Below are positions 1-57,228 of a DNA stretch of 57,228 nt, one piece after another. This stretch comes from Escherichia phage PHB10: the sequence record MK524177.1. The stretch is one strand, 5' to 3'. The notes beneath the pieces are model-generated. The model was not told the origin of the DNA and did not search any database. It saw nothing but the letters and a program-made list of their open reading frames with translations. Every line of letters starts with the position of its first letter. Position 1 is the first letter of the stretch. The position numbers and the translations under genes are program-made.

Positions 1-165
1 CATCGGCCATGACTGTTTTTCAGGGTTGATGCCTTCACCGGCGATCTGTTCAAATCCGTCTCCGAAGGATGCAGAGCGTGTTGCGTAAGTAAGCTCCCCT
101 TCCATTCCCGCCTGAATCTGGGTTCGCCAGGTAAATGTTTCGATCGCCACCTTTCCTCCGGGCAT
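1..165 (-). CDS. minor tail protein M, N-terminal portion (gene runs off the window start; start ATG 165 or GTG 150)
   Basis: Minus-strand translation ...ETFTWRTQIQAGMEGELTYATRSASFGDGFEQIAGEGINPEKQSW resembles the lambda gpM N-terminus as I recall it (TF.W, GM, FGDG); GGAGG 4 nt upstream of GTG 150. Confidence 0.6.
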   Translation of the reverse strand, partial: MPGGKVAIETFTWRTQIQAGMEGELTYATRSASFGDGFEQIAGEGINPEKQSWPM

Positions 166-21382: not shown

Positions 21383-21402
21383 AACTGTATGTATATACAG
21401 TA
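21383..21402 (-). promoter_or_regulatory. LexA (SOS) box overlapping the dinI-like promoter
   Basis: AACTGTATGTATATACAGTA fits CTGT-N8-ACAG; TTGCAA-N17-TATAAA promoter immediately upstream on the minus strand. Confidence 0.75.
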
Positions 21403-36418: not shown

Positions 36419-39400
36419 ATGGAATTTTTCTATGTAGTGAAGGCTACGCAGAAATCTGGCAAAGAAGACGCAGTGATTTGGTTCACTGCTAAATCAGAAG
36501 CCCGTGCCAACCTGCAGCTCGATGTCGAGCTGGAAGATGCAGGTATTGAAACCGGCCGCGGTAAGGATTACTCAAAACCGGTTCGCACCGATTTCCCTGT
36601 TTACAACGATCTGCCTGAAGAAAGCACCGTGGATTACATCTGGTGCAAACGCTACGAACTGCAGGACGATGGACGCACCTGGCTGCCAAAGGCTGGTGCT
36701 GAGTCGACTGGTGACATGGACAGCTCTGCCGCACCGGAGACGACCGTTAATGTCGAAACTACCGTCGAAAGTGTCCCGCTTGAAAACCGCACTCCAGCGG
36801 TCCGTTTTGCCGTCCATCTGACCAGCGACAAATACCAGTCACACATCACTAAAGAGCAGCAGCTGGCTGCCAGCGAAATGTCACTGGATGAAGGCAACAC
36901 CTATCTCCAGAATCTGCTACTGGCGAAGAACGACACCCCTGAAGTTGCCGAACTCAGCCTGAACGCTGAGTGGAAACTGGTACAGGTGATTAAACAGGTA
37001 TTCGCGCTAGATGAAGAGCACGAAGTAAAGCTACTTGCTGCTTTCATGGCCGACTGGTTGAGAGTTGATGCCGGCGCCCGTAATGAGGTAGTGAGAGAGT
37101 GGAAGAACGGAAAGCTTACTCTGCTCAAATCAGAAAGAACCAGCGACGCCGGGGTTGAAACTGATCAGCATATCGCTATTGATGACGGTATCCAGATCGG
37201 CGAGCACGACGATGAAAACACCCGTTATCCAGTGTGCAGAATGCCCTTCCGCAAGCAACTTCTTTCACAGTTCACCGCCGACGAACTGCGCCACCACTTA
37301 ACCCGCGAAGAATACGAAGGTATCAGCGCGCTGGAAATGGACACAGACAACAGCTATGTCCAGAACCTGCTTCTGGCGGCAGAAAACTGCGAAGAGGTTA
37401 AGGGTTACGATACCAAAGACCTGTGGCGCTACACCGACGCCATTCGCAAGGTGTTCAGCCAGGAGAAGCGTCACGAACTCGCTTTGGTTCTCCGATTCAC
37501 CAGAATCTGGGCTGCGACTGATTACATTGACCGCGGCACCCTGGTGCGCGAATGGGTTGAGGGTAATCGCATTTCTGAAGTAGGTTCTCCTGCACCTTTA
37601 GAACCAGAAAAACCAGAAACAACCGAATCCTATAAACGCGCTGTTGCCCAGAACATGGCGAACTTGAGCATTGAGATCGCGATTGCTCAGCTTTACCCAG
37701 ATGCAGTACCGGGGCAAATCAACCGTACGCAACTCCTGGCCGCCAAAGAACTCGCTGACAAAAAAGATGAGTCGCACGCCAAGGCGCTCAAGGTTCTTAG
37801 TAAAACCACCGACATCCTCGACTACGACGCCAACAGTATTTTTGGAGTTACCCGCGCTATTTCATGGTCTGGAGAAGAAAGCACAACCAAACTGCGTAGC
37901 CAGGTGCGTGAGTGGTTCACGGCGAACGGCATCTATGAAAGCGGTGAGCGCTCTAAAGGATATCCAGAATGGAACGAAGACTCCCGCGAGGTTCGTCATT
38001 CCACAGTGGAAGAACCAAGTACTCCAAGCCAGACAAAGGTCGCAAGCCTTGGAAGCGGCGTGTTCTCCATCGATGGCCTGATGGATGGAAATACCGAACC
38101 GGTCATCAATACCAACTCAAATGAAGTCGAAAAAACGGAAAAAACAGCGGAGACCACCAGCGATGTGCAGATGGAAACGGCTAAGCCAGAAAAAGACGAA
38201 GATGTTGGTTCGGTACCACCGAGCGAAAGCACTGATGCAGCTAATTCGCAGACAGATTCCGTAACGTTGGAAGAACAGCAAGCAGAACCGGTAATTGAGT
38301 ACCCAGCTTATTTCGAGCCTGGCCGCTACGAAGGCCTACCGAATGACGTTTATCACGCAGCAAACGGTATTAGCTCAACCCAGGTGAAAGATGCCCGGGT
38401 CAGCCTGATGTATTTCAACGCACGCCATGTGGCTAAAACTATCCCGCGCACAGCATCCAAAGTTCTGGACATGGGGAACCTGGTGCACGCCCTTGCACTG
38501 CAACCGGAAAACCTCGATGCAGAGTTCAGCGTGGAGCCTGAGATCCCGGACGGTGCTTTCACCACAACCGCAACTCTGCGCGAGTTCATCGACGAGTACA
38601 ACGCTAGCCTGCCGGCGCTGCTAAGCGCTGACGAGATTAAAGCGTTGCTTGAAGAACATAACGCATCCCTTACAGCTCCAGTGCCGCTTGGCGCGAGCCT
38701 GGAAGAAACGGCTCAAAGCTATATGGCTCTCCCTGCTGAGTACCAGCGTATTGAAGAAGGCCAGAAGCAAACGGCAACGGCAATGAAGGCGTGCATCAAA
38801 GAGTACAACGCTACCCTGCCCGTGCCGGTTAAAACCAGCGGCAGCCGTGATGCGTTATTTGAGCAATTAGCAATCATCAATCCAGACCTGGTGGCGCAAG
38901 AAGCGCAGAAACCGACACCGCTGAAAGTGTCAGGCAGCAAAGCAGACATGATCCAGGCTGTTAAGTCGGTTAAGCCCGATGCCATATTCGCCGACGAACT
39001 GCTGGATGCCTGGCGCGACAACCCTGGCGAAAAGATTCTGGTTACCCGCCAGCAGCTGGCCACAGCGCGGGCAATTCAGTCTGCACTCCTGGCGCACCCT
39101 ACAGCTGGCATGCTGCTGACACATCCAAGCCGCGCTGTTGAAGTGAGTTACTTCGGCTTTGACGACGAAACAGGTTTAGAAGTGCGTGTACGCCCTGATC
39201 TCGAGATTGAACTGGACGGCGTGCGAATTGGCGCCGACCTGAAAACCATCAGTATGTGGAATGTGAAGCAAGAAAGCCTTCGCGCCAGGCTGCACAGGGA
39301 AATCATAGACCGTGACTATCACCTCAGCGCGGCTATGTATTGCGAGACCGCGGCGCTGGACCAGTTCTTCTGGATTTTCGTCAACAAAGACGAGAACTAC

Positions 39401-39592
39401 CACTGGATCGCTATCATCGAGGCGTCAACCGAACTGCTGGAGCTGGGCATGCTCGAGTATCGCAAAACGATGCGCGCCATCGCCACAGGCTTCGATACTG
39501 GCGAATGGCCAGCGCCGATCACTACCGATTACACCGATGAACTGAACGACTTCGACCTGCGCCGCCTCGAAGCGCTGCGCGCTCAGGCTTAA
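36419..39592 (+). CDS. RecE-like exonuclease VIII (PD-(D/E)XK nuclease C-terminal domain with long acidic N-terminal region)
   Basis: 1057 aa; C-terminal VRPDLEI...ADLKT nuclease-like motifs; immediately followed by the annealing-protein gene. Confidence 0.7.
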   Translation: MEFFYVVKATQKSGKEDAVIWFTAKSEARANLQLDVELEDAGIETGRGKDYSKPVRTDFPVYNDLPEESTVDYIWCKRYELQDDGRTWLPKAGAESTGDMDSSAAPETTVNVETTVESVPLENRTPAVRFAVHLTSDKYQSHITKEQQLAASEMSLDEGNTYLQNLLLAKNDTPEVAELSLNAEWKLVQVIKQVFALDEEHEVKLLAAFMADWLRVDAGARNEVVREWKNGKLTLLKSERTSDAGVETDQHIAIDDGIQIGEHDDENTRYPVCRMPFRKQLLSQFTADELRHHLTREEYEGISALEMDTDNSYVQNLLLAAENCEEVKGYDTKDLWRYTDAIRKVFSQEKRHELALVLRFTRIWAATDYIDRGTLVREWVEGNRISEVGSPAPLEPEKPETTESYKRAVAQNMANLSIEIAIAQLYPDAVPGQINRTQLLAAKELADKKDESHAKALKVLSKTTDILDYDANSIFGVTRAISWSGEESTTKLRSQVREWFTANGIYESGERSKGYPEWNEDSREVRHSTVEEPSTPSQTKVASLGSGVFSIDGLMDGNTEPVINTNSNEVEKTEKTAETTSDVQMETAKPEKDEDVGSVPPSESTDAANSQTDSVTLEEQQAEPVIEYPAYFEPGRYEGLPNDVYHAANGISSTQVKDARVSLMYFNARHVAKTIPRTASKVLDMGNLVHALALQPENLDAEFSVEPEIPDGAFTTTATLREFIDEYNASLPALLSADEIKALLEEHNASLTAPVPLGASLEETAQSYMALPAEYQRIEEGQKQTATAMKACIKEYNATLPVPVKTSGSRDALFEQLAIINPDLVAQEAQKPTPLKVSGSKADMIQAVKSVKPDAIFADELLDAWRDNPGEKILVTRQQLATARAIQSALLAHPTAGMLLTHPSRAVEVSYFGFDDETGLEVRVRPDLEIELDGVRIGADLKTISMWNVKQESLRARLHREIIDRDYHLSAAMYCETAALDQFFWIFVNKDENYHWIAIIEASTELLELGMLEYRKTMRAIATGFDTGEWPAPITTDYTDELNDFDLRRLEALRAQA

Positions 39593-39601
39593 GGGGGATT
39601 T

Positions 39602-40687
39602 ATGCATAACACTAACGTTACCGTTGCTGACCAGAACACCGTTATTAACTCCAACGTGGCTTTGTTCGATTCCCAGTATCTGAACGCCATCAGCACGTTC
39701 GCGCAGATTATGGCCCAGGGCACCGCTACTGTTCCTAAGCACCTGCAGGGCAATCAGGCCGACTGCATGGCTGTAGCGATGCAAGCGGCACAGTGGCAGA
39801 TGAATCCCTTTGCCGTGGCGCAGAAGACGCACCTGATTAACGGTGTGCTCGGGTATGAAGCGCAGCTGGTTAATGCCGTCATTTCTCGAAGCGGCGTGCT
39901 GGCAAGTCGCTTTGAATATGAATGGTACGGGCCATGGGAAAAGGTTGTTGGAAAATTCCACATCCGTAAAGGCGACAAAGGCGAGTACCGCGTCCCGGGT
40001 TGGAACCTGGCTGACGAAGCCGGGATCGGCATCATTATCCGCGCAACGTTGAAAGGTGAAGATCAGCCGAGAGAACTTGATTTACTGCTGGCTCAGGCCC
40101 GTACTCGAAACTCTACCCTCTGGGCTGACGACCCTCGCCAGCAGCTGGCGTACCTGGCCGTCAAACGCTGGGCGAGACTGTTCTGCCCGGATGTGATTCT
40201 GGGCGTGTACACTCCTGATGAGCTCGATGATCGTCATGAAGAACGAGAGGTAAATCCCGCACCGGCGCAGCACGTTAGCCTTGCTGATATTTCAGGTGAC
40301 GATGTCACTACTACTCAACCGGCTCAGGAATCAGCTCAAAATATCGATGCACTTGCTGATGATTTCCGTGATCGCATCGAGGCGGCTCAGGATGTGGATA
40401 GTGCTAAAGCTCTGCGCGCAGATATTGAAACAGTCAAAGTAACGCTGGGTTCTGCCCTGTTCACTGAACTGAAGAACAAAGCTGTGAAGCGTTATTACCT
40501 GGTGGACGCACGCAACAAGGTTGAGGCCGCTATTAACTCCCTGCCACAGCCCGACGAGCCGAATGCCGCCGAACGGTTCGCGGAAGCCGAGCGCGTGCTG
40601 GCATCTTCAAAGCGTCACCTGGGCGACGAGCTGCACGATCAGTTCAGCATCACCCTAGCGGATATGAAACCGGAATACGTGGACTAA
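39602..40687 (+). CDS. ssDNA annealing protein (RecT/Bet-type partner of the exonuclease)
   Basis: 361 aa ORF 10 nt downstream of the RecE-like gene; family call from context. Confidence 0.6.
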   Translation: MHNTNVTVADQNTVINSNVALFDSQYLNAISTFAQIMAQGTATVPKHLQGNQADCMAVAMQAAQWQMNPFAVAQKTHLINGVLGYEAQLVNAVISRSGVLASRFEYEWYGPWEKVVGKFHIRKGDKGEYRVPGWNLADEAGIGIIIRATLKGEDQPRELDLLLAQARTRNSTLWADDPRQQLAYLAVKRWARLFCPDVILGVYTPDELDDRHEEREVNPAPAQHVSLADISGDDVTTTQPAQESAQNIDALADDFRDRIEAAQDVDSAKALRADIETVKVTLGSALFTELKNKAVKRYYLVDARNKVEAAINSLPQPDEPNAAERFAEAERVLASSKRHLGDELHDQFSITLADMKPEYVD

Positions 40688-41032: not shown

Positions 41033-41245
41033 ATGTCGCAGGTAATATTTAACGAAGAATGGGTTGTTGGCGCAAGGCTCACAGAAAAAACAGGCCTGAC
41101 CGAACGACAGATTGAGAAGTATCGCCAGGGCTGTTGGGTGGAAGGTGTCCATTTTAAACGGGTTTCTCCTTCCGGAGAAAAAACCTTGCGTGGCACAACC
41201 TGGTACAACTATCCGAGAATTAATCAGTTAATAAGGGATGCGTAA
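41033..41245 (+). CDS. xis: excisionase
   Basis: 70 aa basic protein immediately upstream of and overlapping int. Confidence 0.7.
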
Positions 41246-42485
41246 GATGGCAGCTATGCCTACAGGTGTCGAAATCAGAAACAATAAGATTTGTATCTGG
41301 TTTATGTACCGGGGAAAGCGTTGCCGCGAAATTCTCAAAGGTTGGATTAACACTCCGGCGAACATCAAAAAAGCCGGAAATCTTCGGGCTGTGATCGTTA
41401 GTGAGATCAACCTTGGAGAGTTTGATTACCACCAGCGCTTTCCTTCATCGTCCAGAGCAAAAAAAACCGTAACCACTGTTTCAGTTCAAACCTTTTCAGA
41501 GCTGTGTGAACTGTGGACGAGCATTAAAGAAACCGAAATTAGCGCGAATACCATGCGTAAGACGCGCTCACAACTCGGTACGTTAATGCACATCATTAAC
41601 GGAGATACGCCTGTTTCAACTATACGCCACAGCGACATTCTGAAATACAGGAAGGAGCTGTTGAACGGTGAGACACTTTACCTGGCAAATCCCAGAAGTA
41701 ACAAACAGGGACGCACTGTGCGTACCGTGAACAACTATATATCGCTTCTGTGCTCCCTTCTTCGGTTTGCACACAAATCTGGCTTTATCAGTGGCAAACC
41801 ATTTGAAGGGATCAAGAAACTACACAAAGGGAAAGTAAAACCGGATCCTTTAACGAAGCAGGAGTTTAGTTTGCTTGCGGCATCCGAGCGTGGCCAAAGC
41901 CTCAATATGTGGACGTTCGCAGTTTATACTGGTGTCCGTCATGGAGAGCTTGCAGCTCTTGCCTGGGAAGATATCGACTGGGAAAAAGGTACGGCTCATA
42001 TACAGCGCAACCTTAATGCGCTAGGAATGTTCGTCCCACCAAAAACCGATGCAGGTGATCGAGTTATCACGCTATTAGAGCCGGCACTTGAAGCCTTGAA
42101 AGCACAGCGCAAGCTAACAGCGCTGCAGCCTAAAACCGAAATTGTCTTTAATCATCGCGAGTATGGCGCAGTGGAACATCAAAGCCTGCGATTCGTTTTC
42201 ATACCCCGGATGCGCAAAGGAGAACAGAAAGCCTACTACTCTTTATCGAGCATCGGTGCGAGATTCAACGCAGCTGTAAATCGTGCTGGTATTCGCCGCC
42301 GGAATCCGTACCATACGCGGCATACTTTTGCCTGCTGGCTTTTATCTGCCGGCGCTAACCCGTCTTTCATAGCCAGCCAGATGGGGCATGAAAACGCGCA
42401 AATGGTTTATGAAGTCTACGGTGCGTGGATTGAAGAAATGAATGGCGAACAGGTGCTGATGCTTAACGATAAGCTGGCACGCTGA
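41238..42485 (+). CDS. int: tyrosine integrase (lambda-type with N-terminal arm-binding domain)
   Basis: C-terminal catalytic motifs (R...[28 protein letters not shown]...Y); 415 aa; adjacent to the repeat-flanked att region. Confidence 0.9.
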
Positions 42486-42493
42486 AAAATTTT

Positions 42494-42740
42494 TGCCCCT
42501 ATTATGCCCCTATTGGCTCCGAAGGTAGTAATAAATGCAAGAAAATCAACAAAATACAAAGAAAGAGCAATACAACCTGAATAAGCTACGCTGATTTTGC
42601 CAACTCATTGATATCATTTGTTTTTCATTTAAATCAATTAGTTATAGCATAATAGTTTCTCCCTAAAGCTACCCAGAACTACAATTTTAGTGCCCTTTTT
42701 TTGCCCCTATTTCGCATTTTTGCCCCTAAATTTGCCCCTA
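42494..42740. repeat. attP-like attachment region: five direct TTTGCCCCTATT arm-type repeats flanking an AT-rich core
   Basis: Perfect TGCCCCTA at 42494, 42505, 42702, 42721, 42733 (degenerate copies at 42691, 42772); AT-rich 42513-42690 between clusters; starts 6 nt after the int stop. Confidence 0.5.
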
Positions 42741-42811
42741 TCTTTAGCCAGTGCGCCACCCTTATTCTCCCTGCCCTATACTTTAAGTCTGACATCTGGT
42801 TCGAGGTTTCT

Positions 42812-43486
42812 ATGTGTGGACGCTTTGCACAAGCTCAAACGCGTGAAGAATATCTGGCTTACCTGGCCGATGAAGCCGATCGCGACATCGCATACGACCC
42901 TGAACCTATTGGACGTTACAACGTGGCGCCAGGTACCAAAGTTCTGTTGCTGAGCGAACGTGACGAGCAGTTGCATCTCGATCCGGTCCTGTGGTCTTAC
43001 GCGCCCGGGTGGTGGGATAAAGCACCATTGATAAACGCGCGTGTCGAGACAGCGGCCACCAGCAGGATGTTCAAACCTCTCTGGCAGCATGGCCGGGCAA
43101 TCTGCTTTGCTGATGGATGGTTCGAGTGGAAGAAGGAAGGCGACAAGAAGCAGCCATATTTTATTCACCGGGCAGACGGTCAGCCGATATTTATGGCCGC
43201 GATCGGCAGCATACCGTTTGAGCGAGGCGATGAAGCAGAAGGTTTTCTGATAGTAACGTCTGCCGCTGACAAAGGCCTAGTGGATATTCACGACCGCCGG
43301 CCCCTGGTCCTATCACCAGAAGCGGCCCGGGAATGGATGCGCCAGCATGTTGGAGGAAAAGAAGCGGAAGAGATTGTATCTGACGGCTCTGTACCAGCTG
43401 AGATGTTTGTCTGGCATGCTGTGTCCCGTGAAGTAGGAAATGTAAAAAATCAGGGGAGAAAATTGATAGAACAAATAGATATATAA
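42812..43486 (+). CDS. SOS response-associated peptidase (SRAP / YedK-like abasic-site processing protein)
   Basis: Starts MCGRF (catalytic Cys2 hallmark); about 225 aa. Confidence 0.85.
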   Translation: MCGRFAQAQTREEYLAYLADEADRDIAYDPEPIGRYNVAPGTKVLLLSERDEQLHLDPVLWSYAPGWWDKAPLINARVETAATSRMFKPLWQHGRAICFADGWFEWKKEGDKKQPYFIHRADGQPIFMAAIGSIPFERGDEAEGFLIVTSAADKGLVDIHDRRPLVLSPEAAREWMRQHVGGKEAEEIVSDGSVPAEMFVWHAVSREVGNVKNQGRKLIEQIDI

Positions 43487-43537
43487 TCTGATGTACTTTT
43501 GATGTGTACTTTATATTTGGTTTAATATTATCTCCCT

Positions 43538-43738
43538 TTAAGAAAGAAATATATTTGCAGCCATCGGACCACTAACCCCATTTATACGATAAAATTCAAC
43601 ACGAACGCCAGGTTTTAACGTTTGGCTTTCATTATTACTAAATGCGGAAATATGTAAAAAAACATCTTTCCTGCCATCTGATGGGATAATCAATCCCTTT
43701 CCGCTCTTGAAGTCAAAACTTTTGACAATTCCTGTCAT
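43538..43738 (-). CDS. cold-shock-domain protein (CspA family)
   Basis: [33 protein letters not shown]... RNP-like motifs. Confidence 0.8.
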
Positions 43739-44037
43739 TTTACGAGACAAATATTTTCCTAATGGCAATCCAGATTTGACTATACAGGATTGGTTAATAA
43801 TAGCCAAACCTATTTTATTGGCCTTCCGGAAGGCTAAAATAAAATTTGCTTAATCTTTCAGCACGTGCCTTAATGGTTTGGCTGATTCATTGCGATGATG
43901 AATCTAACTTTTCCAAAAGCCGTTCTCATAACTAGGTGTTATCTCTGATATCCCTCCTTTTGAGTCCATACATATACCAGCATACGTTTCTTATCATGAG
44001 CTTGCTTGTCAGTTTGAAATGTTCAAACGGAGTTTGT

Positions 44038-44256
44038 ATGTCATCTAAAATCATAGGTCTTGTTAAGTGGTTTAACGAAGATAAGGGGTTTGGCTTTATC
44101 TCCCCACTTGATGGAAGTAAAGATGTTCTTGTTCACACTTCTTCCCTGCGGGGAGAAACATTTAATACTCTTTTTGAAGGACAAAAAGTCAAATTCGCTA
44201 TCATAGCTGGAACTAAAGGTCCAATCGCTGCCAATGTAACACTTTGCGATAGATAA
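44038..44256 (+). CDS. cold-shock-domain protein (CspA family)
   Basis: [35 protein letters not shown]; start 44038 with GGAG SD. Confidence 0.85.
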
Positions 44257-44497
44257 TTTTAGATGGTTTACTTAAGCCAGCATGACTTTATCAGTGAAAG
44301 GTGATGTTCGGTTACTCACATCATTACAACAGGCCAGCATATTTACTTACCATCAAGTTTGCTGACCGATGTGATGAAATGCAGGACTGCTGCATGAACA
44401 GTCTCAAAGCAGAAGCTAACTGCTTATAAAATACTAAAGTGCGTAAGAGGTTAGGCAGCCTCCAAAAGCATCACTTCTTATTTTTTAATAATTTTTT

Positions 44498-44662
44498 TTA
44501 GAAGCGCTGGGAAGATTTGAACAAAGCACAGCAGTATGGGCACACCAACTGAGCCCCCTTTTGTACACGATTGTAACTATGTTCGGAATCTTTTGAGCAG
44601 TTTGGACAAGGACATTTTACCAAATAATTTCGGCGGAATTGAGTATTTTTACGTGCAGACAT
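44498..44662 (-). CDS. small Cys-rich zinc-ribbon protein
   Basis: 54 aa from MSARKN with CPCPNC...CPYCC; GGAGAAG SD. Confidence 0.4.
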   Translation of the reverse strand: MSARKNTQFRRNYLVKCPCPNCSKDSEHSYNRVQKGAQLVCPYCCALFKSSQRF

Positions 44663-44810
44663 AGACTTCTCCAGTTCAAATGGACCGTTACAGTACACGT
44701 TAAGACTGTATAATGCTTGTTTTAATTTCGAAAGAGGCAAAAAAAATGAACAAACAGAACTCTTTCGACCACCTGCAGGGGCTAGAAACCCTCAAAATAC
44801 ATGGTGATAT

Positions 44811-45038
44811 ATGAAAAAAGTAATCATTTTTTTTAATGGTAAGCCAAGTAAAGTTATCACTGTGCTTAAAGGTGTGACATCAATACTCGAAGAATATCCT
44901 AATGGAGAAGTGATAAACCTTCAGATAATGTCAGCAGGTTTTCCCTCTTTAACAGGTGACCATGAAGTGGTTTATGTGGCATCAGATCGAGAGCTTACCT
45001 CTCAGGAAATATTAGATGCGGCGCAGAAGTATCTTTGA
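44811..45038 (+). CDS. hypothetical protein (self-contained AT-rich moron)
   Basis: 75 aa ORF with its own terminator. Confidence 0.4.
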   Translation: MKKVIIFFNGKPSKVITVLKGVTSILEEYPNGEVINLQIMSAGFPSLTGDHEVVYVASDRELTSQEILDAAQKYL

Positions 45039-45099
45039 CGCCTGAGATTCAACGCCAACATTCATAAAATCATTATTATAACTACGTTTAATTATTATG

Positions 45100-45124
45100 G
45101 CCTGCTTAATGCAGGCTTTTTTTT
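45100..45124 (+). terminator. intrinsic terminator
   Basis: gcctgc-ttaat-gcaggc followed by T8. Confidence 0.65.
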
Positions 45125-45211
45125 ACCCCCACACAAACAATTATAATTAAGACAAGTGCATCCAACATCATGGCAATATGACTTTATTGCTGAAGCAACC
45201 ATAAGGCTTCC

Positions 45212-45550
45212 ATGAAAATCCTACAATACACAGTATTAATAGTTATTGAAGCACGATCCTCAGATAATAATATCAACCCTCTTCTCTTGGGTCTCTTGCA
45301 TGACAGAAACTATTCAAGTAAGTCAAACCGAGGCGTTAAACTTCCATCCCATGCATTCATTGGTTCAGAGGGGCAGGCAGTTTTAGAGTGGCAGTCTGAA
45401 AAAGATGGAGCAGAAATACTAAAAAAAAGACTCTACCAGATGCTGCATGGAATTACACGTTTAGAAGAGTTTCCCACAGCAATTTTTCTAATGATTTGCC
45501 CAGAAGAAAAAACCTTAACCTTTGTTTCAAGACTTAAAGAAAAAAAATGA
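45212..45550 (+). CDS. hypothetical protein (AT-rich moron)
   Basis: 112 aa ORF. Confidence 0.4.
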   Translation: MKILQYTVLIVIEARSSDNNINPLLLGLLHDRNYSSKSNRGVKLPSHAFIGSEGQAVLEWQSEKDGAEILKKRLYQMLHGITRLEEFPTAIFLMICPEEKTLTFVSRLKEKK

Positions 45551-45926
45551 ACATCGTTATTTCAGCCTTCACCATCTCAAAATGCTGCGATCGTGAAAAC
45601 TGCGAAAGAAAATCATGAGGCACATCAGTAAATATTGTATCATTTGCTAAGCATTGCTGTTACATTCGGTTTAATGATGAATCCTCCTAAGCGGCAGGGC
45701 TAATTAACCTGATGATTTGTATATCAAGCGGCTCATCGTGAATTTCTGAAGCAGCGAGTCACGAGTGGTTAGGTCAATGACTCACCGGGAGGCACCCGGC
45801 ATCATATCCGTAAGCCCCTGTATAATTGCAGGGGCTTATTTACATTACAAAAGCATAGTCTTAGACATATTACTGTTAATACTCATAGCCGATAATTAGG
45901 CTCGAATGAATAGACCGTTTAAAGAA

Positions 45927-47195
45927 TCATCTAACTTTTATTAGGTCTGAATACCTCGTAGTATATCGTGGAGATAACATATCCCGTTTCATCTGCCACT
46001 GCTGCTGTATGCCCTGCCCGGCAAAGTAAAGCGTTCCTTTTCCATCTTTCGCGTTCAAGTGATCGAGCACCTCCATCAACTTATCGCTTCCTGCGCGTGG
46101 AGCGTTCTCATCGAAAAGGTTCAACTGCGCCACCCCTTGGCTGAAAAAATCTCCCAGCATGATTCCAGCCTTTTGATAGCGATAGCCATCCTTCCAGATT
46201 TTGTCCAGGCACTTTACCGCGGCGTTGATTATGTCGCGGGAATCCTGTGTAGGGGTGAGAAGCTTCATGGACGCGCTGTTACCGTAATATGGCTCGTTAA
46301 GCGCAAAGGGAGAGGTTTTCACGAACGCAGAAATAAAGCGGCAGTACTGATGCTCTCCCCGCAACTTTTCTGCGCCTCGGGCCGCATAACTGCAAATGGC
46401 CTGCCTCATTTGTTCGTAATCAGTGACGCGTTCACCGAATGACCTGCTACAGACGATCTCCTGCTTTGCCGGCGCAAATTCCTCCAGCTCGAGACAGGGC
46501 TCGCCGCGCAGCTCCCGGACAGTTCGCTCCAGGACGACATTAAAGTGTTTGCGGATAATCCACGTGCTTTGTTCAGAAAGGTCCAGAGCTGTTTTGATGC
46601 CCATGGCATTCAGCTTCTTACTGATGCGCCTGCCTACGCCCCATACATCTTCTACTGGCACGATGTCGAGCAATCGGCGCTGGCGGTCGATATTGGATAA
46701 ATCAACTACCCCTCCCGTTTGCCGCTGCCATTTCTTCGCGGCGTGGTTGGCCAGCTTGGCCAGTGTCTTTGTCTGGGCAATTCCAATCCCGACAGTCAGG
46801 TGCGTCCGCTTCAGAACGGTAGCGCGGATTTCTTTGCCGAACTCAGTAAGATCCCGGCAATTGCGAACACCTGTTAGGTCACAAAATGCTTCATCGATAC
46901 TGTAAATTTCTACGCGAGGGCTCAACTCCTCCAGTGTGGTCATTACTCGATTCGACATGTCTGCGTACAGCTCGTAGTTACTGCTGAAGCAAACAACCCC
47001 AGCGCGCCGAAATAAGTCCTTTTGCTTGAAGAAAGGCTCTCCCATTGTAATTCCAGCCGCCTTGGCCTCGGCGCTGCGCGCGATTACGCAGCCGTCATTG
47101 TTCGAAAGAACAACCACTGGCCGCCCTTTCAAATCGGGACGAAACACCGTCTCGCATGATGCGTAGAACGAATTCACGTCGCAGAGCGCAAACAT
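45927..47195 (-). CDS. umuC: translesion DNA polymerase V catalytic subunit UmuC
   Basis: Y-family polymerase N-terminus [15 protein letters not shown]; 422 aa; directly downstream of umuD. Confidence 0.9.
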
Positions 47196-47197
47196 AC

Positions 47198-47617
47198 TCA
47201 GCTCGCCGATTTGACGATGAAAGTAACAACGCCGAAAACGTCCAGCGTATCTTCGCTGCCTACAACAATCGGACTGTAGGCGCTATTCATTGGGATGAGT
47301 TGGACATTTGGACGCAACTGCAAACGCTTAACAGTGAATTCCCCTTCAACCGCGGCGATGACAATGTCACCGTGCTCAGCCGTGCGCGAACTATCCACCA
47401 CCAGCAGATCACCGTCGCTTATCCCGGCTTCGATCATTGAATCCCCCGCGGCTTTGACGAAATATGTAGAGCTCGGGTGAGCGACAAGTAACTCATTGAG
47501 ATCGATACGCTGTTCAACGTAATCAGCTGCGGGGCTTGGGAAACCACACTGTACTAAGTCACTGAAAAGCGGAAGAGCGATAATATCTCGCAGTTCTGTT
47601 GGCCTGATGAATTCCAT
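47198..47617 (-). CDS. umuD: UmuD (LexA-like S24 peptidase, polymerase V accessory subunit)
   Basis: 139 aa from MEFIRP; Ser-Lys dyad context (AAGDSM ... VKRL). Confidence 0.9.
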
Positions 47618-47632
47618 TGCACACACCTCAAA

Positions 47633-47652
47633 TACTGTTTTTATATACAGTA
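47633..47652 (-). promoter_or_regulatory. LexA (SOS) box upstream of umuDC
   Basis: TACTGTTTTTATATACAGTA fits CTGT-N8-ACAG, 16 nt upstream of the umuD start. Confidence 0.8.
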
Positions 47653-56348: not shown

Positions 56349-57104
56349 TTAACTCCTGATCAAAGATGTTCCCGGAAAACCACCGAAAGGAAGTTCATTG
56401 TGTTCACCAAACCGAAGCTTGCAGGCGGTGAGCGTGCCGTTGCATTCATCCAATGAGGGATCGCTTACCGGATTGTTGTTTCTGTCGAAGTAAAGCGTGC
56501 CGGCATAATCGCACCCATCGCCGGTGCGGTACCTATTCCGGATGCACCATGTGCAAAGGGAATGCAACTGTCTGGTCGGAATCATCAATCCCTGCAGATC
56601 CATCGGGCTGGTAAGAACAAACTCGATACTTTCACCGGGAAGCTCACTATTTTTACCGTCGATATAGAAAACCCGCTTCCTCACCTGCAAGGGATCTGCT
56701 GTTGGATTTCCATCCGAGAAATTGCGCGCATCCAGGTAATGCGCAAAAGTGTCATGAATCGTAACTTTGGCCTGCAGCATATCGTCATAGGCCAGACAGA
56801 GCGCAGTGATAGAGCTGTCAATGTTGGCGACGGTGAGCGTCGGCTGGGCGCTACTGCCATCGGTTGACGCTTCCAGTCCCTCGAGCTTATATGGCCAGGC
56901 ACCATACTCTTCGCCCTGCCACCAGATACTCTTCGCCTTTAACTTTGATTCGTCGCCGCCAGCAGCCGCAATCTCTTCTTCAGTATGCGGGAGGTTATAA
57001 GCGTGAAAGCGCAGAACGTCGTCCAGACCAAACGCAGAACCGTCTACCTCAAGAAGACGTATTTTTTCACCCGGTTCGAGGTGTTGATAATCTTCAGTAA
57101 TCAT
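56349..57104 (-). CDS. minor tail protein L
   Basis: 251 aa with C-terminal Cys cluster CTWC...C...C as in lambda gpL; start overlaps the M stop (ATGA). Confidence 0.85.
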   Translation of the reverse strand: MITEDYQHLEPGEKIRLLEVDGSAFGLDDVLRFHAYNLPHTEEEIAAAGGDESKLKAKSIWWQGEEYGAWPYKLEGLEASTDGSSAQPTLTVANIDSSITALCLAYDDMLQAKVTIHDTFAHYLDARNFSDGNPTADPLQVRKRVFYIDGKNSELPGESIEFVLTSPMDLQGLMIPTRQLHSLCTWCIRNRYRTGDGCDYAGTLYFDRNNNPVSDPSLDECNGTLTACKLRFGEHNELPFGGFPGTSLIRS

Positions 57105-57228
57105 GGTGCGTATGCCTGTTTGAAGGTTGCTTTTATAGTCATCACTTTGCTGGATAGCGGCTGGACTTTAATGGAATCAGCTTCAATCCGGTATAAACCG
57201 GTTTCGCCGACAGGAGACGTCCAGATAA
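57105..57228 (-). CDS. minor tail protein M, C-terminal portion (gene start lies beyond window end)
   Basis: Open frame ...IWTSPVGETGLYRIEADSIKVQPLSSKVMTIKATFKQAYAP* ending at TGA overlapping the L start; resembles the lambda gpM C-terminus as I recall it. Confidence 0.6.

Follow-up and report, generated by a model that had tools for sequence, protein, structure and literature searches.

The genome of Escherichia phage PHB10 (sequence record MK524177.1; 57,228 nucleotides, the whole of which is referred to here as the window) carries two short genes for cold-shock-domain (CSD) proteins that face away from each other, positions 43538 and 44256 being the stop-codon ends of the two opposed open reading frames (ORFs). 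The minus-strand gene (43538-43750) begins with a TTG codon and encodes a 70-residue protein of the CspF/H type, in which the first ribonucleoprotein motif (RNP1) has the degenerate form KSGKGLI and residues F31 and H33 are kept. The plus-strand gene (44038-44256), which is CspB-related and which we call cspX, begins with ATG and encodes 72 residues with the C-terminus ...LCDR, the RNP1 motif KGFGFI and the RNP2 motif VLVHT. Each start codon is preceded by a Shine-Dalgarno (SD) sequence, AGGA at 43757-43760 ahead of the TTG, as annotated for E. coli cspF and cspH, and GGAG at 44029-44032 ahead of the cspX ATG. Longer ORFs of 89 and 106 residues returned by the ORF finder were rejected, the 70- and 72-residue genes being preferred on the grounds of homology, the positions of the SD sequences and the presence of a promoter inside the longer ORF. 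The divergent spacer between the two genes measures 287 bp and holds two back-to-back sigma-70 promoters, much as the original prediction had described the locus, a pair of CspA-family genes diverging across a control region of some 300 bp.

The Pfam CSD model (PF00313), which describes a five-stranded OB fold of about 65 residues, is matched over its full length by both products, the CspF-like protein with an E value of 2.4e-20 and CspX with one of 1.6e-25. The CspF-like protein passes the NCBIfam CspF subfamily model (120.2 bits, cut-off 111), scores below the cut-off of the CspH equivalog model (114.4 vs 141 bits) and fits the CspF/CspH family in its 70-residue length and SGKG signature. 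CspX falls below every NCBIfam cut-off, the CspA, CspE, CspC and CspG models being the nearest and CspA the best (102.8 vs 130 bits). A neighbour-joining tree, which supplies the phylogenetic comparison with chromosomal csp genes that had been proposed at the outset, places cspX in the CspB clade and its partner in the CspF/H clade. Consistent with these placements, CspX is 66% identical to CspB of E. coli, 60% to CspA and CspG and 57% to CspI, and the CspF-like protein is 66% identical to E. coli CspF and 69% to CspH. CspX belongs to a subgroup of 72-residue proteins with an LCDK/R ending and aligns without gaps over residues 1-68 with the E. coli CspA structures 2L15 and 1MJC. At the DNA level a megablast search of E. 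coli genomes, phages and plasmids returned no close relative of the pair, only patches of 76-82% identity to cspH and cspF, and E. coli was accordingly rejected as the source of the element.

Close relatives, 90-100% identical, come from several Enterobacter species, among them E. bugandensis, E. cloacae and E. asburiae, and from 22 IMG/VR prophage contigs. For comparison at the level of the locus we used 26 related loci from Enterobacter prophage ends (E. bugandensis and E. cloacae genomes, and including the 22 IMG/VR contigs), which with the window give 27 copies. All 26 related loci have the pair in the same orientation, the spacer measuring 282-288 bp, and the CspF-like gene, cspX and a ynfU-like gene next to it are full length there as in the window. 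Neither csp gene contains a frameshift or premature stop in any of the 27 copies, and the TTG start of the CspF-like gene is retained in 26 of them. The pooled ratio of non-synonymous to synonymous substitution rates (dN/dS), computed from 23 distinct sequences of the CspF-like gene and 16 of cspX, comes to 0.12 and 0.14, respectively. Both csp genes are intact and under purifying selection, and they are not pseudogenes. They also diverge in parallel between loci, and hence travel as one unit. Pseudogenization or identity to a chromosomal copy, either of which had been named as a sign of host origin, was looked for and not found, since the genes are intact, their dN/dS is low and their nearest relatives lie in Enterobacter prophages and not in a host core gene.

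Conservation extends into the spacer. The promoter of the CspF-like gene (43779-43807, minus strand), located by promoter scan, consists of TTGGCT and TATAGT separated by 17 nt and leaves a leader of about 22 nt, with a predicted transcription start near 43772; the CACTATAC block, which spans the start, SD sequence and -10 element on this side, is invariant in a DNA alignment with E. coli cspF and cspH, and diversity among the related loci is low at 43781-43790. On the other side, alignment with the upstream regions of E. coli cspA, cspB, cspG and cspI reveals a cspA-type promoter for cspX (43832-43874, plus strand) comprising an AT-rich UP-like block (43832-43845), the -35 element TTGCTT (43846-43851), a 17-nt spacer and the extended -10 element TGcCTTAAT (43866-43874), in which the -10 matches cspA. 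In the UP/-35 block the match is to E. coli cspG, the two being almost identical overall and agreeing completely over GGCTAAAATAAAATTTGCTTAATCT. Nucleotide diversity across the cspX promoter is close to zero among the related loci, so that the promoter blocks are nearly invariant as compared with a third-codon-position diversity of 0.12-0.15. By homology the cspX transcript is predicted to start near 43883, which would give it a leader of about 155 nt (43883-44037, plus strand). This leader resembles the cspA thermoregulator family (Rfam RF01766) in its length, in an 8-bp hairpin at its 5' terminus (43884-43891 paired with 43897-43904) and in the predicted sequestration of the SD sequence, with an anti-SD CCUCC (43953-43957) opposite GGAG at 44029-44032. 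The leader of cspA itself is 159 nt long. Comparable complements are present in the aligned leaders of cspG (CCUUC:GAAGG) and cspB (UUCCUU:AAGGAA), and a central block of the cspX leader (43911-43969) recurs in those of cspB and cspG at roughly 80% identity, judged by eye. The full-length cspX mRNA reaches RF01766 with 79.5 bits over 43911-44310, the gathering score being 78.

The two csp genes do not stand alone. Convergent with cspX lies a gene (44498-44662, minus strand) for a 54-residue zinc-ribbon protein of the YnfU family (Pfam YnfU, E 1.3e-28; NCBIfam zinc_YnfU_fam, 72.6 bits), which the original prediction overlooked: the pair that it described is real but forms part of a three-gene cassette homologous to a known E. 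coli module. In the Qin prophage of E. coli K-12 the order is ynfU(+), cspB(-), cspF(+) with a 300-bp spacer, of which the window is a mirror image with the same relative order and orientation, and it possesses the defining features of the Qin-type cassette, namely a divergent CspF/CspB-type pair about 300 bp apart with ynfU convergent on the CspB-type gene. The likeness includes a cspA-type promoter on the CspB-like side, a TTG start and a TATAGT -10 element on the CspF side, and carriage by a phage. Qin, which carries cspB, cspF and cspI, also bears out the statement in the original prediction that csp paralogues reside in E. coli prophages. However, the Qin proteins are only 64-66% identical to those of the window, and Qin CspB has VFVHF where CspX has VLVHT. 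The same pair in the Qin arrangement is found in the functional Escherichia phage 2H10 (NC_049950), and both Qin and 2H10 carry the module between the genes for the Q antiterminator and the holin, whereas in the window it occupies the arm next to att. The Q-lysis slot of the window instead holds a tRNA-Arg(UCU) gene (17805-17881, minus strand) and an STnc100 small RNA (sRNA).

A second E. coli counterpart is the chromosomal cspH(-)-cspG(+)(-ymcF-ymcE-gnsA) locus, which likewise pairs a CspF/H-type gene with a divergent, cold-inducible CspA-type gene across a 285-bp spacer. It differs in not being prophage-borne and in the canonical RNP motifs of CspG, and cspX is nearer to CspB than to CspG. 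Recurrence of the arrangement in the 26 related loci, twice in E. coli K-12 and in phage 2H10 means that it is not due to chance. Klebsiella and Citrobacter also have chromosomal equivalents of the pair, with 74-76% identity and canonical RNP2, adjoining a GH94 glucan gene and beside integrase-bearing islands; no prophage genes are present in the approximately 7 kb seen on either side of the pair, and neither SRAP (SOS-response-associated peptidase) nor umuDC lies beside it. Such a placement would fit acquisition of the cassette by a phage through imprecise excision. The pair is thus largely ordinary, belonging to the known cspF/cspB(/ynfU) cold-shock moron family of enterobacterial lambdoid prophages, and it departs from that family in three modest respects: the slot in the phage genome, the diverged leader and the de-aromatized RNP2 of the CspB-type partner.

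The last of these concerns the nucleic acid-binding face. CspX has the RNP1 aromatic feature of CspA-type RNA chaperones, KGFGFI, but lacks the RNP2 feature V-F-V-H-F, since in VLVHT only H33 remains of F31, H33 and F34. Its substitutions relative to CspA are F31L, F34T and Y42F, and the RNP2 state [LV]31 with [TS]34 is fixed in all 27 copies. Position 31 of CspX corresponds to F30 of CspE, which the work of Phadtare and co-workers in 2002 reportedly placed among three residues on which nucleic-acid melting and antitermination critically depend. In the CspF-like protein the RNP1 aromatic feature is missing: it has KSGKGLI and is without W11, F18 and F20, and it retains F31 and H33, unlike E. 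coli CspF and CspH. A lack of RNP1 aromatic residues is characteristic of the CspF/H family (PMC10819108, PMC6719143). We also surveyed RNP2 in the wider clade of 72-residue CspB-like proteins, using its top 120 representatives (P0001-P0120), 110 of which were scorable: RNP1 is conserved in nearly all, and [VI]FVHF is kept in only 40 of the 110. The variants comprise VFVHF (29), IVVHF (13), IFVHF (11), VLVRF (10), IFVHL (7), ISVHF (6), VLVHT (5), ISVHV (4) and others, a variability that could reflect either relaxed or diversifying selection.

The interpretation that we favour, and consider probable though well short of assured, is that the locus is a phage-borne cold-shock cassette benefiting the lysogen. 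It would be a conserved, self-contained moron of three parts (the CspF/H-type gene, the divergent cspX and the convergent ynfU-type gene), homologous to the cspF-cspB-ynfU module of Qin and also to cspH-cspG on the E. coli chromosome, and carried as cargo in the att-proximal arm of an Enterobacter lambdoid phage predicted to integrate at the Rac site ttcA. With its own conserved sigma-70 promoter on each csp gene, the cassette would be expressed from the lysogen independently of phage lytic regulation. On a temperature downshift cspX would probably be induced, as cspB and cspG are, by means of its promoter and long leader (5' hairpin and anti-SD:SD helix), cold induction being plausible from the homology of both elements. 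CspX is likely to bind RNA or single-stranded DNA (ssDNA) through its intact RNP1, and the remodelling of RNP2 (L31, T34) has probably lowered or changed its capacity for melting and antitermination; its CspF-like partner would act as a non-canonical CSD protein. The net outcome would be a benefit to host fitness, in the form of stress acclimation of the lysogen.

A number of observations weigh against this reading, and they fall on its regulatory as well as its biochemical side. The RF01766 score of cspX is barely over the gathering score, whereas cspB and cspG reach about 159 bits. Tested alone, the cspX leader gives no match to the Rfam cspA family, whereas that of E. coli cspB alone scores 25.4 bits; the full-mRNA score of cspX therefore rests mostly on its coding region, and we do not claim that a thermosensor is conserved. 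Many of the model pairs are non-canonical in the cspX match, RNAalifold found 0 compensatory pairs among 12 leader variants, so that covariation lends no support, and the leader folds no better than shuffled sequence (z = -0.09). In alignment with the E. coli csp leaders, including that of Qin cspB, neither the cold-box nor the upstream-box sequence is conserved. As for the proteins, the changes F31L and F34T deprive the patch used for binding and melting of aromatic residues, which leaves the chaperone function of CspX uncertain. No function has been assigned to CspF or CspH, which are not regarded as true RNA chaperones (PMC6719143, PMC10819108), and when overproduced they had no effect on the two Csp target mRNAs tested (PMC11648934). 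The proposal that the element supplies RNA-chaperone functions to its host thus stands only in part: CspX keeps RNP1 but carries the F31L and F34T changes in RNP2, and its partner belongs to a family not regarded as true RNA chaperones.

Other explanations assign the genes a different beneficiary or a different task. The cassette might serve the phage, its CSD proteins acting as RNA chaperones or antiterminators on phage transcripts, in lytic development at low temperature or in the decision between lysis and lysogeny. The position of the pair in Qin and 2H10, where it belongs to the late transcription unit and is flanked by Q and the holin gene, is what such a role would lead one to expect, and CspA-family proteins are known antiterminators (reviewed in PMC10819108). 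In the window, however, the pair has been relocated to the att-proximal arm and has promoters of its own, the RNP2 changes argue against strong melting or antitermination, and the chromosomal Klebsiella and Citrobacter cassettes with their prophage-free surroundings would be left unexplained; we regard service to the phage as unlikely. An alternative that we judge decidedly unlikely makes the locus part of a DNA-damage or replication-stress arm, in which the CSD proteins would bind ssDNA and act together with SRAP and UmuDC, and with DinI in related elements. It draws on the location of the pair between SRAP and umuDC, on the adjacency of SRAP to the pair in 23 of the 26 related loci (in some of which it is cut by the contig end or frameshifted; the other 3 contigs end earlier) and on DinI upstream in two of them (L005 and L033). 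E. coli cspH is induced 20-fold by azidothymidine (AZT), with cspF, cspG, cspI and ynfQ also induced (PMC11228462), so that a role in replication stress is conceivable. Yet the csp spacer has no LexA box, the only boxes in the window being at umuD and at 21385; umuDC is complete in only 16 of the 26 related loci, being truncated in 4 and outside or absent from the covered sequence in 6; the chromosomal copies have neither SRAP nor umuDC alongside; and cargo genes gather near att whatever their function.

It is very improbable that the pair has no selected role and is a passive hitch-hiker, drifting host DNA acquired next to att by imprecise excision. Such an origin would account for a position less than 1 kb from attP, within a 2.5-kb AT-rich block (35-39% GC over 43500-46000, as against about 52% in the flanking SRAP and umuDC genes), for the homologous Klebsiella and Citrobacter cassettes beside integrase-bearing islands and for the unusual variability of RNP2 in the clade. 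The low dN/dS of both genes and the absence of any frameshift or stop from the 27 copies nevertheless count strongly against it, as do the conserved promoters, and the L31/T34 state is stable across its subclade, which makes decay unlikely. Quite as doubtful is a more specialized proposal, in which the genes form a co-evolving pair with complementary remodelling of the binding face, CspX having kept RNP1 and lost the RNP2 aromatic residues and the partner having lost RNP1 but kept F31 and H33. The two would then constitute a dedicated ssDNA- or RNA-binding system, possibly as a hetero-oligomer, that works with SRAP, UmuDC and DinI in damage tolerance and not in cold acclimation. In a broader form of this proposal, the mobile clade of 72-residue CspB-like proteins would be under diversification precisely at positions 31, 33 and 34, the ones critical for melting. 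Finally, the proteins could take part in defence against phages, as effectors comparable to the CSD proteins of type V / Se72 retrons. Weak domain-level matches exist (PADLOC CSD_V, 27.6 and 43.5 bits; NCBIfam retron_eff_Se72, 26 and 44 bits), but the retron_eff_Se72 scores are far under the cut-off of 82 and reflect only the shared cold-shock-domain fold, so the pair is no member of this group, and Rfam and protein profile searches found neither a reverse transcriptase nor msr/msd RNA in the arm. With sub-threshold effector scores and no reverse transcriptase or retron RNA, a defence role was rejected as effectively refuted and has next to no probability.

The value of the locus lies mainly in annotation and context. 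The comparison presents the E. coli cspF-cspB-ynfU (Qin) and cspH-cspG module as a mobile cassette, found on chromosomes, in the Q-lysis moron slot and in the att-proximal arm of lambdoid phages of enterobacteria, that passes between these locations and stays under purifying selection in each. A stable, selected CspB-like lineage with a de-aromatized RNP2 could serve as a natural experiment for separating the residues required for binding from those required for melting. In addition, CspF/H-type genes appear always to be inherited with a CspB/G-type partner, a linkage which suggests that their function depends on that partner.

The window as a whole represents a lambdoid temperate phage whose genes stand in the excised order and which shows a mosaic of similarities to mEp237, HK225 and prophages of Klebsiella. 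Genes for RecE, RecT and an integrase with an Arm-DNA-bind_2 domain run rightward, and the lysis, head and tail genes run leftward, from the left edge on to the right edge. The RecE-like exonuclease VIII (1057 residues) and RecT (361 residues), encoded at 36419-40687 on the plus strand upstream of int, are similar to the genes of mEp237, HK225 and Klebsiella prophages. The last gene of this arm, which is like a leftward operon, encodes a tyrosine integrase of the IntR/Rac type (41238-42485, plus strand; 415 residues; Pfam Arm-DNA-bind_2 and Phage_integrase), with 77% DNA identity to integrases annotated beside ttcA in E. coli phages. It is followed by the attP region (42486-42745), where a 5' fragment of ttcA lies amid arm-type repeats in the layout of intR-ttcA at the left end of E. 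coli Rac. The fragment (42535-42594) translates to MQENQQNTKKEQYNLNKLR*, the start of E. coli TtcA being MQENQQITKKEQYNLNKLQ, and is flanked by five arm-type repeats TTTGCCCCTA at 42492, 42503, 42700, 42719 and 42731. The stretch that takes in the ttcA fragment, the downstream arm repeats and the sequence up to SRAP is common with a prophage-end junction of E. bugandensis, which adjoins an integrase-gene remnant and through which the cargo arm meets the ompN/ydbK side of the chromosome; at this junction the related integrated copies still have a short piece of an earlier integrase gene. Host ttcA would have its N-terminus and promoter replaced upon integration, in the manner of Rac in E. coli K-12. 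Beyond attP come the SRAP gene and then the csp pair, which is about 0.8-0.95 kb from attP, an order that agrees with the accessory arm next to att described in the original prediction.

The ends of the window (1-165 and 57103-57228) split a gene for an M-like minor-tail protein. Its N-terminal 55 residues stop exactly at base 1, its C-terminal 41 residues begin at the right edge in a different frame, and about 50 nt are missing. An exactly circular window was rejected because of this split, the missing nucleotides and the frame offset. Rather than a single integrated prophage, the window is thus either a circular permutation that falls just short of closing or a junction between (collapsed) tandem copies; under either topology int, attP and the cargo arm form one uninterrupted stretch.

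The first cargo gene after att encodes a YedK-like SRAP protein (42812-43486, plus strand; Pfam SRAP, E 3.7e-51; NCBIfam PRK09951, 462.8 bits). Every related locus has the block of SRAP, cspF-like gene, cspX, ynfU and orf75 as far as its contig extends, SRAP being disrupted in one of them. The orf75 gene (44811-45038, plus strand) is 58% identical over 69 residues to the ynfN region of E. coli Qin (tblastn) and matches PHROG 3425 (E 7.5e-32); the 75-residue gene that follows the pair in Klebsiella and Citrobacter matches it in position and length only. Next comes orf112 (45212-45550, plus strand), which belongs to the AT-rich block that is conserved together with the pair. It occurs in 25 of the 26 related loci, and Pfam, NCBIfam and PHROG-type profile searches gave no family match for it. 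The arm is closed, before the tail-fibre gene, by a variable neighbour on the minus strand (45927-47650) consisting of umuC (45927-47195), umuD (47198-47617) and the LexA box of umuD, CTGTTTTTATATACAG, at 47635-47650; the tail-fibre genes too vary between related loci. A second LexA box, perfect in sequence (CTGTATGTATATACAG), is located in the early region at 21385-21400. Terminator scanning and folding revealed no convincing intrinsic terminator downstream of the CspF-like gene or cspX. A weak hairpin with T/A runs between the convergent cspX and ynfU-like genes (44437-44499; -10.7 and -12.2 kcal/mol) was not called by the terminator scan and has z-scores no better than those of shuffled sequences, and may, at low confidence, act as a two-way terminator. 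The window contains two copies of the STnc100 sRNA (Rfam RF02076; 74.1 and 52.7 bits), one at 17258-17463 on the minus strand between Q and the lysis genes, beside the tRNA, and the other at 45642-45843 on the plus strand between orf112 and umuC. A relationship between STnc100 and the PasD sRNAs, which are encoded in prophages of pathogenic E. coli, has been described (bioRxiv 10.64898/2026.05.13.724894), and the copy in the cargo arm is conserved in E. bugandensis.

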